Shown: positions 3,028 through 37,042 of the stretch, one piece after another | Position numbering within the stretch: the first letter of the stretch is position 1 | Layout: each line of letters begins with the position of its first letter | Assembly (NCBI GenBank): GCA_050248615.1 | Contig: JBFWSA010000020.1 | Coordinates: 1-41,371, forward strand | Length of the DNA stretch: 41,371 nucleotides | Source of the DNA: Simkaniaceae bacterium | Lineage (GTDB): Bacteria; Chlamydiota; Chlamydiia; Chlamydiales; Simkaniaceae | Direction: 5' to 3' | Program-made: the position numbers and the translations under genes | Notes under the pieces: generated by a model | Told to the model about the DNA's origin: nothing | Seen by the model: the letters and a program-made list of their open reading frames with translations, nothing else | Database searches by the model: none

Positions 3028-3192
3028 ACCTGAGTTTTGGGTTTTTTCTTATAGATAATCAGAGGGTTTTTCTGTTAGATTTTTGTTTGTTTTGCACGCA
3101 GGAAAGGGCCAAAGTGCCCTTTTCAAGTGAAAACAAGCAAAAAGAAAGAGAAAGACCCCTGAGAATCAATAAGAAAAATCCAAAACTCAGGT
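3028..3192. mobile_element. MITE-like palindromic element E1 (165 bp, AC...GT ends, TTCTA direct repeats)
   Basis: AACCTGAGTTTTGG (3027-3040) / CCAAAACTCAGGTT (3180-3193); the whole element is an imperfect hairpin. TTCTA at 3023-3027 and 3193-3197. Confidence 0.75.
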
Positions 3193-3214
3193 TTCTAAGA
3201 GTTAAAATAGGCTT

Positions 3215-5002
3215 ATGGATTTAAACATCATTCCCAAAGAGCCCGGTGTGTATCTGATGAAGGACAAAAAGGGGGAGGTCCTTTATGTAGGAAAAGCCAA
3301 AGACCTTAAAGTACGGGTGAAGCAGTATTTTGTGCCCGGACGTGATGGGCGTCTCATGGTTCCCTTTTTAACATCTCAAATTGAAGCGATTGAGACCATT
3401 GTGACTTTTTCAGAAAAGGAAGCCCTTCTCCTCGAAAATACCCTGATTAAACGGTACCGCCCCAAGTACAATGTTCTTCTCAAAGATGATAAAACCTTTA
3501 TCAGTTTAAGTGTGAATCACCGTCACACGTGGCCCCTCATTAAACTCACACGCTATAAGGGTAAACCCAAAGGAGATGCGCTCCACTTTGGCCCCTATAC
3601 GAGCGCTTTTGCTGCCAGACAAACCCTCGATCTCATGAATCGTGTTTTTCAATTGCGCCAGTGCTCGGATCGCGAGCTCCACTCTCGCTCGCGTCCTTGC
3701 CTCCTTTACGCGATCAAGCGGTGTTTAGCCCCTTGTGTGGGGAAGTGTTCTAAAGAGACTTATGAGCAGGAGGTCAAACGGGCGATTCAATTTTTGAAAG
3801 GACATGACAAAGAAGTGATCGAACAACTCAAAAAAGAGAGGGAGGAGGCTTCTAACCAAATGGAATATGAAAAAGCCGGAGCCCTTCACCAAACGATCCT
3901 ACAAATTCAGCACGTTACGGAGAGTCAACAATCCATTATTCGCACCAAAGGGAAAGACTGCGATGTCTTTGCTCTCTATCATGAAGGAAAGCACCATATC
4001 ATTGCAGAGCTCATTTTTCGCGAGGGGCGCCTCATCGGAGCGGATCATTTTAAGTTTGTCGAAATCGCCTCGACTGATCAAGAGATTTGGGAAACTTTTT
4101 TAGTGCAACACTACCAAGAAAAAACCCCACTCCCTCCCGAAATACTTCTTCCCCTGGAACTCCAGCAAAAAAAGGCTCTCGAAGAGATCCTCTCTATTAA
4201 AATTGTCTACCCGCAAAAAGGGGAAAAACAGGCTCTTATTCGCCTTGCACATAAAAACGCTAAAGCTCTCTTTTCCCAAGAACTCTCTAGAGAAGAACTC
4301 CTCTTAGATCTCCAGGAAACCTGCGGTTTAGATCGATGCCCTGTCCGGATTGAATGCTTCGATACTTCCAATATTTCGGGAACAGACCTGGTAGCTTGCA
4401 TGGTGGGATTTACTGATGGGAAGCGCGATAAAGAGCGTACGCGCCTCTTTAAAGTGAAGGGAATTGATAAGCCCGATGATTATGGAGCTTTAAAAGAGGT
4501 CCTCACTCGACACTACACAAAAGCTAAGGAGAAGGATGAACTCCCCGATTTAACTCTCATTGATGGAGGAAAAGGACAACTCAACGTGGCTTTAGACGTT
4601 TTTCAGGCACTCGAAATTGCCTCAGTAGATGTGATTTCCCTAGCAAAAGAAGAGGGACGTCATGATAAAGGGCTCCATTTTGAAAAGATCTTTACTCCCC
4701 ACAAAAAAGACCCCATCTTCCTTTCTCCCCGCTCCTCAACTCTTTTTATTTTGCAACAAATCCGAGATGAAGCTCACCGCGTGGCAATCACCTACCACCG
4801 TAAAAGACGGACCAAGCGTATTATCCAAACAGAGCTCGAGGGCATTCCCGGTATTGGCCCTAAAAAACGGACCCTTCTTCTCAAACATTTTGGGAGTGTA
4901 AAGCAGCTCAAAAAAGCGACTCTCCAGGAGCTTCAAGAACTTAAAGGACTCAATCAAAAAGACATTGAATCTATTGAAAAGTTTCAACAAGATTCACGGT
5001 AA
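3215..5002 (+). CDS. uvrC: Excinuclease ABC subunit C
   Basis: GIY-YIG (PGVYLMKD..VLYVGKAKDL), Cys cluster, RIECFDTSN, LIDGGKGQL, QIRDEAHR, C-terminal HhH (GIPGIGPK). Confidence 0.97.
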   Translation: MDLNIIPKEPGVYLMKDKKGEVLYVGKAKDLKVRVKQYFVPGRDGRLMVPFLTSQIEAIETIVTFSEKEALLLENTLIKRYRPKYNVLLKDDKTFISLSVNHRHTWPLIKLTRYKGKPKGDALHFGPYTSAFAARQTLDLMNRVFQLRQCSDRELHSRSRPCLLYAIKRCLAPCVGKCSKETYEQEVKRAIQFLKGHDKEVIEQLKKEREEASNQMEYEKAGALHQTILQIQHVTESQQSIIRTKGKDCDVFALYHEGKHHIIAELIFREGRLIGADHFKFVEIASTDQEIWETFLVQHYQEKTPLPPEILLPLELQQKKALEEILSIKIVYPQKGEKQALIRLAHKNAKALFSQELSREELLLDLQETCGLDRCPVRIECFDTSNISGTDLVACMVGFTDGKRDKERTRLFKVKGIDKPDDYGALKEVLTRHYTKAKEKDELPDLTLIDGGKGQLNVALDVFQALEIASVDVISLAKEEGRHDKGLHFEKIFTPHKKDPIFLSPRSSTLFILQQIRDEAHRVAITYHRKRRTKRIIQTELEGIPGIGPKKRTLLLKHFGSVKQLKKATLQELQELKGLNQKDIESIEKFQQDSR

Positions 5003-5474
5003 AGGGCTTTTGATATCCAAATTGACGGGCTAGAAGAGTTCCCAACTCCTTTTGAATCTCTTCGAAAAAACCCTCTTCTTTTTCTTCGGGAAGGGTCACA
5101 AAAACCTCTAAAGATTGCTTCCCATGAATCACCACATCTGCATAAGGCTCTTGGTTCGGAAAGCGCCCTTTCCAATAGTTACTGACCATCTCAGAGATGA
5201 GGGACTCCTCCACTTCGATTTTCAAGCCTTCCATCTCAATCTGAAAAAAACGTCTCCGATTTATGAAATAAAGAGCCAATAAGAGTAAAAAGGATCCCCC
5301 TATCAGAGTGGCTCCCAAAATCTGATAAAATGCAAGACTTTCTAAAAGAGAGTTAATCAAAAAAATACGGAGATGGGGAGCATAAGGCAAAACAAAGAAA
5401 AACAAACCGACTGTCAAAATAAAAAAAACGATAAAGAAATGAAGGGCAGAAAAGAGGATATTTCCTACTTTCAT
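4971..5474 (-). CDS. Membrane protein, possibly an AmaP-like anchor for Asp23
   Basis: Two N-terminal hydrophobic helices followed by a soluble domain; 2 bp downstream of the Asp23-family gene. Confidence 0.65.
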   Translation of the reverse strand: MKVGNILFSALHFFIVFFILTVGLFFFVLPYAPHLRIFLINSLLESLAFYQILGATLIGGSFLLLLALYFINRRRFFQIEMEGLKIEVEESLISEMVSNYWKGRFPNQEPYADVVIHGKQSLEVFVTLPEEKEEGFFEEIQKELGTLLARQFGYQKPFTVNLVETFQ

Positions 5475-5476
5475 GC

Positions 5477-36639: not shown

Positions 36640-36655
36640 TGTGCACCTTCCTAAT

Positions 36656-36821
36656 TTGAGACCATTGCAAAAGTCATTCCACTCATCTAACTTGATCTAT
36701 TTTGATTAAATTTTTTTCTCTTTTTCGGTCAGCTCTCTAGAGCTGGCCTCAAAAGCCGAGAAAAATTTTCTCTAAAAAATCTCAACTCATCTGAATGAAA
36801 GCATTTTTGCAACGGCCTCAA
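36656..36821. mobile_element. MITE-like palindromic element E5 (166 bp)
   Basis: TTGAGACCATTGCAAAA / TTTTGCAACGGCCTCAA (15/17); apical GGTCAGCTC-TCTA-GAGCTGGCC (36727-36748). Confidence 0.7.
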
Positions 36822-36878
36822 TTTGCAACATCCAACAAATGGTACCCTCTCTAGGGATTTTTTGGTTACTCTAGAATA

Positions 36879-37042
36879 ACGCGAATTCTGGATTAGATCT
36901 CTATGAAAAGGTTTAGATTTTTGAAGAGATTTCCAGAAAAATCTGCGAAGGAGATAGCCAAAGCGCTATCTTCAAGCAGTTTTTCCTGGAAAGATCACAA
37001 AAAGATAGACGTTCTCATAGAGATCTAATCCCGAATTCGCGT
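36879..37042. mobile_element. MITE-like palindromic element E6 (164 bp, AC...GT ends, TAGAATA direct repeats)
   Basis: 30-bp IR with 1 mismatch (36877-36906/37015-37044); TAGAATA at 36872-36878 and 37043-37049. Confidence 0.8.

Follow-up and report, generated by a model that had tools for sequence, protein, structure and literature searches.

The stretch of DNA analysed here (contig JBFWSA010000020.1, positions 1-41,371; hereafter the window) comes from a Simkaniaceae bacterium and contains two long hairpins, E1 and E6, whose 35-nt apices lie on the plus strand at 3095-3129 and 36944-36978 respectively. Both 35-mers can be read directly in the sequence at these positions, as GCA / 9-bp stem / CAAAGT / AA in E1 and GAA / 9-bp stem / CAAAGC / AA in E6, and they agree, as the original prediction held, in the 9-bp stem, a G-T at pair 2, a CAAAGY loop and a GMA/AA internal loop. 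The inner stems differ by three pair swaps, at pairs 4, 6 and 7, and the outer stems (CAC/GTG in E1 and TGC/GCA in E6) by two. Over the central 44 nt E1 and E6 are identical at 24 positions, a figure matched by none of 5000 shuffled E1 hairpins in which arm pairing was kept, so their likeness is not due to chance; the apical geometry by itself arises in 6% (E1) and 4% (E6) of 2000 shuffled hairpins each. The same geometry had been claimed for two further hairpins near the right end of the window, E8 and E9, and is complete in E9 (GAA / 9 bp / AA), with E8 having GAA / 9 positions / GA and one C-T mismatch in the stem. What had been missed is that the motifs are the tips of whole-element hairpins bounded by terminal inverted repeats and direct repeats.

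E1 and E6 are almost certainly transposable elements of the miniature inverted-repeat type (MITEs). E1 is 165 nt long (3028-3192, plus strand) and is flanked by the target-site duplication TTCTA (3023-3027 and 3193-3197); E6 is 164 nt long (36879-37042, plus strand) and lies between copies of TAGAATA (36872-36878 and 37043-37049), its insertion point being the terminal repeat of an adjoining hairpin element of family 4. Both have AC(N6)T(N5)TT ends, their starts fitting the IS982 insertion sequence (IS) consensus 5'-AC(N6)T(N5)TT exactly, as E8 does with a one-base shift; both are shorter than 500 bp, non-coding and intergenic, with arms paired out to the tips. The loose ends of other E1 copies fall at 3026/3027 and 3193 and those at the E6 borders at 36877 and 37043/37044, and contigs of other sequencing runs diverge at the borders of both elements. 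Below the apex each hairpin has a second internal loop. This is AGAT (36927-36930) facing AGAT (36992-36995) in E6, for which tandem G·A pairs are predicted, and a degenerate form of the same loop in E1, where from the sequence and the model alignment described below AGAT (3077-3080) faces AGAA (3143-3146) and a strict AGAT/AGAT test is negative.

The two elements are dispersed and multicopy, with 21 loci of the E6 family and six of the E1 family in the source genome (G000, whose contigs are given C-numbers; L-numbers denote fetched loci). Of 39 genomes of the family, 9 contain a match to E6 and 17 a match to E1. Duplications without a mismatch border 18 of 24 full-length insertions of the E6 family (6-8 bp) and 13 of 23 of the E1 family (5-6 bp). 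The outer T/A of each may belong to the terminal repeat, in which case the duplications are 2 shorter. The duplicated target has no preferred polarity with respect to the structured strand (15:11, p=0.56), and no clean empty site for E1 or E6 was found among the contigs of three DNA and two RNA runs. A first scan of G000 returned 164 long hairpins, and the catalogue of hairpin repeats holds 266 loci in 13 families occupying 1.6% of bases, a count without the family of a further window element, E5, which was found later. Full-length copies are mostly 158-168 nt regardless of their termini, with one family at 177 nt.

E1 landed in the middle of an existing AT-rich palindrome (3010-3208), which extends its hairpin by ~12 bp, just past the stop codon of an open reading frame (2251-3003) for which there is no Pfam match; uvrC (3215-5002, plus strand) lies directly downstream. 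In sequencing run X4 this reading frame is without contig coverage (window positions 2150-3170), and the X4 contig carrying uvrC keeps the last 22 nt of E1 preceded by other sequence, a junction also present in an RNA contig of run X16. This is a difference between strains, possibly through recombination at the terminal repeat. One E6-family copy elsewhere (L004, G006:C64) has a second hairpin of ~48 nt inside its apical loop.

Hairpins of similar design are found at the ends of IS982 elements, a family described as having AC(N6)T(N5)TT ends, direct repeats of 2-10 bp, a DDE transposase of ~270-290 aa and lengths of 845-1282 bp (Fayad et al. 2020, PMC7335449). E8 (40652-40813, plus strand) is a 162-nt MITE consisting of the IS982 left terminal repeat, the left hairpin and the same left repeat inverted, and E9 (41081-41248, plus strand) is not a full MITE but the left end of an IS982 remnant, with 95% identity over 168 nt to an IS982 copy on C12. 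In broken IS982 copies on C3 and C12 the E8/E9 hairpin forms the beginning of the element, immediately upstream of the start of the transposase, and on C12 a second hairpin, on the opposite strand, forms the end. We searched 400 genomes of the phylum and metagenome contigs with L036, a homologue with an intact 272-aa frame, and obtained matches in 43 of the 400 genomes and at 35 metagenome loci. Among elements with both termini, the 24 long ones (1138-1263 bp) all have hairpins of 35 bp or more at each end and the ten short ones (916-1021 bp) all have none at either, counts that leave out L157, L164, L172 and L040, in which the terminal pair was mis-called or the element broken, and eight duplicate loci. 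We refer to these long hairpins as rods, and to the elements with and without them as rod-ended and rod-less.

In the rod-ended elements the hairpin apex is 76-82 nt away from the tip of the IS, on the strand that has its 5' end there, and the left rod is placed just upstream of the ribosome-binding site; the structured strand at both ends is that of an inward-reading transcript. Their transposases contain domains PF01609 and PF13612, their direct repeats (2-10 bp) and lengths are those of IS982, and the nearest annotated plasmid proteins, at 33-38% identity, are IS982 family transposases. In G279, G352 and G268 the long elements are intact and present in several copies, which implies recent activity there. 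In an unrooted quick tree of 56 transposases the rod label requires two changes, against 9.3 in shuffles, and one of the two is the mis-called L164. No insertion specific to the rod-ended transposases was seen by eye in comparing 32 with 7 proteins, and the covariance model described below has no match on four plasmid IS982 elements (from cyanobacteria, Rhodothermus and Bacteroidota). Three further loci are of note. At L021 (G043:C106) a rod-ended IS982 remnant starts right after the first ~27 nt of a family-13 MITE, the IS having landed in its arm; at the right end of L136 one arm is a perfect copy of the other and the internal loops are erased; and L037, from a Chlamydiota metagenome-assembled genome that is not one of the relatives searched, contains a near-perfect 160-nt hairpin with IS982-type ends (885-1045) beside a family-1-type terminus, whose folding energy is without strand asymmetry.

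An alignment was made of 71 of the 79 extracted IS-end hairpins, leaving out near-duplicates and the one hairpin from G000. Both-sided changes occur at 30 of 32 consensus pairs, and 88% of cells are paired, compared with 56% in column shuffles and 36-49% with slid partners, figures biased upward by the picking of hairpins for folding and their cutting around the predicted apex. Each arm carries a near-invariant AGAT, and in the fold these two stretches are arranged as A-T, G·A, A·G and T-A. AGAT/AGAT is present in 70 of the 79 hairpins and on none of their 79 reverse strands, and an apex of the form GA(A) / 8-10 bp / RA in 58 and 4 respectively. A covariance model and an Rfam search had been proposed as checks of the original prediction. 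The model, built from the IS982 ends and trained without G000 sequence, matches E8 (69.8 bits), E9 (62.2 bits), E6 (30.2 bits, E 4.7e-6) and E1 (21.0 bits, E 1.5e-3), all on the plus strand, lists neither E6 nor E1 on the minus strand, and gives 21-41 bits to E1-family copies from other families of the order. We conclude that E1 and E6 are very probably built to the same design as the hairpins at the IS982 ends, and the cores are likely to be related by descent. The Rfam search gave no support, with only a tRNA reaching threshold in the window and with sub-threshold matches alone on seven IS loci, nearly all to miRNA-precursor families.

The terminal loop behaves differently from what had been supposed. 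CAAAGY had been taken as a recognised feature, with freely varying loop residues named as the observation that would speak against it, and the IS982 end hairpins carry unrelated loops of 3-5 nt in its place. Within the E6 family CAAAGY is present in 12 of 20 copies, the others having CGCAGA, CGCAGT or CGAAGC. CAAAGY characterises the E1 and E6 families and not the hairpin group as a whole, and the conserved parts are the GA-rich internal loops. The proposal of a single-stranded RNA or single-stranded DNA (ssDNA) structure likewise stands for a fold selected on one strand and falls for stand-alone RNAs, E1 and E6 being mobile elements.

The fold is probably selected on one strand, and the alignment together with the change counts bears out both this part of the original prediction and its broad covariation of pairing. 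In 11 of 14 groups the mismatches on one strand are purine-purine, and nine of those 11 have their G·T pairs on the same strand. Covariation alone is no proof of selection, because in one family-4 copy (G000:C5:26735-26897) a perfect copy of the left arm stands in place of the right one and the internal loops are erased. Since such arm copying yields both-sided changes without selection, we compared changes common to several copies with private ones at strand-neutrally defined Watson-Crick pairs, leaving out families 0 and 6 (ambiguous strand) and skipping groups of fewer than four copies. The ratio of G·T to A·C is 27:6 in shared changes and 39:50 in private ones (Fisher p=2e-4), and for E1 and E6 alone 20:5 and 17:30 (p=5e-4). 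Purine and pyrimidine mismatches show no contrast between shared and private changes (p=0.56), and 36 both-sided changes are found among private events as well.

Orientation of the copies is indifferent to host genes and tracks replication. Between co-directional genes (own gene calls) 46 copies are sense and 46 antisense, and the strongly asymmetric families divide 29:35. The replication strand was read from the GC skew at third codon positions (GC3) in place of a mapped origin. By this measure the structured strand in G000 is the C-rich one in 81 cases and the G-rich one in 43 (p=8e-4), or 111:72 over all families, with nine of ten families in the same direction, and control genes divide 747:749. 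In other genomes, for stretches around known copies, the C-rich to G-rich ratio is 36:15 with 11 unassigned (p=0.005), and a hand tally of the E1 and E6 families over all genomes gives 41:14. If the G-rich strand is taken as the lagging-strand template, the strand that folds well is under-represented at the places where it would be single-stranded. Because orientation ignores genes and follows the replication strand, ssDNA is favoured over RNA. An orientation survey, in the part consulted, reports no bias for IS982 as a family (PMC3971601), as the mirror-image pair of ends would predict.

The hairpin core is combined with several kinds of termini. For E1, the termini match the ends of L194 and L110, rod-less IS982 elements from a distant group, along 17-20 nt but not beyond, and E6 termini match another member of this group over ~18 nt (L209) and a broken IS982 on C11 over 10 nt. 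L194, L110 and L209 supply autonomous partners, themselves without hairpins, and no intact autonomous partner for E1 or E6 termini was found in G000. A long hairpin is absent from 18 of the 19 elements of the rod-less group with a terminal pair, the other having a 50-bp stem at one end, and the covariance model has no match in L189-L218. DDE remnants on C9, C22, C55 and C56 were considered as parents and rejected, as they are not rod-ended. The apical geometry is present in all seven family-4 copies, whose ends match an IS5-type remnant, and in all three TA-flanked family-13 copies, and the apices of E5 and E8 are identical at 23 of 25 nt, where the local similarity ends; the geometry is missing from families 0, 1, 2, 5, 6 and 8 and from the single family-11 copy. 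AGAT/AGAT is kept in 5 of 15 family-1 and 6 of 11 family-2 copies. Apparent intermediates of end capture can be seen in the family-4 copy with an overwritten arm and in an element inside an E1-family MITE arm on C9 (L015, G000:C9:40696-41940). In the latter the 297-aa DDE frame is intact, the terminal repeats are 18 bp long and the duplication is 9 bp; it resembles elements of the IS903 group. The E5 family, with a 3-bp duplication in seven of eight copies, also has short versions of 60-67 nt that keep both termini and are without the hairpin core (G000:C3:46558-46617 and C2:74589-74655).

Five other hairpin elements lie in the window. E2 (17118-17277, plus strand) is a family-1 MITE without the apical geometry, whose ends match a rod-less DDE remnant on C55. 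E3 (21687-21846) is a TA-flanked family-0 MITE without either motif and with no clear strand asymmetry, and E4 (31438-31545, plus strand) is a family-2 MITE with an internal deletion. E5 (36657-36820, minus strand) is a 164-nt MITE with the non-IS982 ends TGAG...CTCA and a 3-bp duplication, and the family-4 MITE beside E6 (37047-37206, minus strand) has the apical geometry and ends that match a rod-less IS5-type remnant on C22. The segment 36657-37206 is a cluster of three MITEs with different termini (E5, E6 and family 4), in which E6 is nested in the family-4 terminal repeat, and nesting is common genome-wide. A tRNA gene (40858-40940) lies between E8 and E9, as does a remnant of an IS982 right-end hairpin (40962-41044).

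We tentatively favour, at somewhat less than even confidence, a reading in which the E1/E6 fold forms as ssDNA at the replication fork and a predicted protein reads its GA-rich internal loops. The core hairpin, like the IS982 end hairpins, would fold when single-stranded at the fork, and a candidate protein, either the transposase or a host factor, would read the G·A loops of the folded strand. A MITE would be born from a single IS end that folds back, with its terminal repeat duplicated onto the opposite arm, a scheme that E8 fits; the core would then acquire the termini of other transposases, and rod-less IS982 enzymes would mobilise E1 and E6 in trans. Copies with the well-folding strand on the lagging-strand template would be excised or lost more often, or inserted less often. 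The fixed distance from the tip and the link to replication point to DNA. A broader version, possible but doubtful, has a portable strand-specific ssDNA module at both ends of an IS982 subgroup, read through its tandem G·A loops at a set distance from the transposon tip and linking DDE transposition to the fork. Grafted onto the termini of other IS982 and of IS5-type transposases, this module would have given rise to a superfamily of ~165-nt MITEs whose ends are swapped through fold-back copying.

Several observations weigh against this reading. A sequence-only hidden Markov model of the IS hairpins misses the E1 and E6 cores (mean <1 bit), so that their relation to the IS hairpins is one of design and convergence is possible; strict AGAT/AGAT is present in none of ten E1-family members, the E1 score is just 21 bits, and the purine loops are no better conserved than the stems within the E1 and E6 families (0.80 vs 0.83-0.85). 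The E1 family in G000 runs counter to the replication bias (1:3), which could itself arise simply because unstable copies are lost, without any protein. RNA parameters give a greater strand asymmetry of folding energy than DNA parameters do (mean -17.3 vs -6.7 kcal/mol), and G·U and tandem G·A pairs are typical of RNA. The hairpin is not needed for the chemistry, since related IS982 elements without rods are intact and present in multiple copies. Finally, searches for a rod-ended IS with termini of the E1 or E6 type were negative in the 39 family genomes, in 400 genomes of the order (only two candidates scored per genome) and among the 19 elements of the matching transposase group that have a terminal pair; G106 has two partial matches at contig ends, of which the one inspected runs into a MITE-type right repeat. 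An alternative to terminus swapping is that rod-ended parents with such termini exist and are unsampled.

The RNA-like features could instead reflect an insulator, in which a read-in transcript folds the rod and is cut by RNase III or stopped, shielding the transposase gene from read-through and antisense transcription, with the MITEs inheriting the signal. The larger asymmetry with RNA energies, the position of the left rod and the assignment of the structured strand at both IS ends to the inward transcript are in keeping with this, and RNase III is described as cutting Correia-element transcripts (PMC10969869, PMC2229807). We consider it somewhat unlikely, given that MITE orientation is blind to host transcription and not to replication, that the apex is at a fixed distance from a DNA tip, and that neither hairpin of one intact element has a promoter-like site in a consensus scan (3 in the region, 2.8 expected). 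The resemblance might also be passive, the product of a shared ancestor, arm-to-arm copying and loss of unstable copies, with nothing recognising the fold in MITEs today. The overwritten arm on C5, the both-sided changes among private events, the equal conservation of loops and stems in the E1 and E6 families, the drift of AGAT/AGAT in the E1 family and the six other MITE families without the apical geometry are all to be expected on such an account. Arm copying erases mismatches, however, and yet one-strand G·A loops persist across transposases of ~35-40% identity; moreover the changes that spread are biased to G·T on the structured strand and the private ones are unbiased, making a purely passive origin quite unlikely. 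That families with unrelated termini converge on whole-length hairpins of ~160-168 nt could also indicate extrusion of the entire palindrome as a cruciform, which would join the terminal repeats and so assist synapsis where the element is too short for bending, with the internal loops serving just to prevent cutting. A cruciform folds both strands, leaving the one-strand purine loops and G·T pairs unexplained together with the hairpins at both ends of a 1.15-kb element, and we regard it as very improbable.

The elements described here agree with the IS982 review in ends, direct repeats, transposase and size range; the text searched mentions neither MITEs nor end hairpins, and it states the IS982 mechanism to be unresolved (PMC7335449). 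ISPasp1-3 of Parachlamydia, listed there at 952-1023 bp, are the size of the rod-less class. MITECca01/02 of Cardinium cOegib are likewise non-autonomous, multicopy, mostly intergenic and often within mobile elements, and have termini resembling those of an IS982 in the same genome (ISCca4); compared by description only, they differ in being ~240 bp with one parent and no core shared across transposase types, and the words hairpin and secondary structure are absent from the main text of that report (PMC9769881). YPAL/RU-2 (~168 bp), Correia/NEMIS, ERIC and QMITE2 are also intergenic whole-length stem-loops of 100-200 bp with duplications; the accounts consulted frame their function as host mRNA processing and, in the parts compared, describe no internal-loop motif shared between families, twin-hairpin parent or replication-strand bias (PMC2229807, PMC10969869, PMC5896051).

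Integron attC sites also form an imperfect hairpin with unpaired features that set one active strand, and in sedentary arrays this strand is reported to lie mostly on the leading-strand template, a pattern like the orientation bias seen here (PMC5371416). Unlike attC, the present elements are dispersed, have terminal inverted repeats, duplications and DDE partners, and flank no gene cassettes. An attC or integron identity was rejected, E1 and E6 being dispersed and duplication-flanked, and G000 holds only two tyrosine recombinases. REP/RAYT systems have subterminal hairpins read on one strand, and neither they nor IS200/IS605 elements are known to make a target duplication. Both use HUH (Y1) enzymes, unlike the DDE partners here, and an identity with either was rejected in the absence of any PF01797 (HUH, Y1) match in G000, which is 96% complete. 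IS200/IS605 elements likewise have subterminal hairpins read on one strand, with a replication-linked orientation bias in the survey cited above (PMC3971601). A retro-element identity was set aside in the same way, with no PF00078 (reverse transcriptase) match in G000.

DDE transposases are generally taken to read double-stranded ends. Long stem-loop MITEs are well known (PMC2229807, PMC10969869, PMC5896051) and an IS982-derived MITE has been described in Cardinium (PMC9769881); a literature search, with supplements and ISfinder entries outside its scope, found no description of twin IS982 end hairpins or of a hairpin core common to several termini. The rod-ended subgroup, its rod-less sister group and the natural minimal versions together offer a direct means of testing whether ssDNA or RNA structure is used by a DDE element, and a core carried on several types of terminus would explain both the origin of new MITE families and the one length common to unrelated families.

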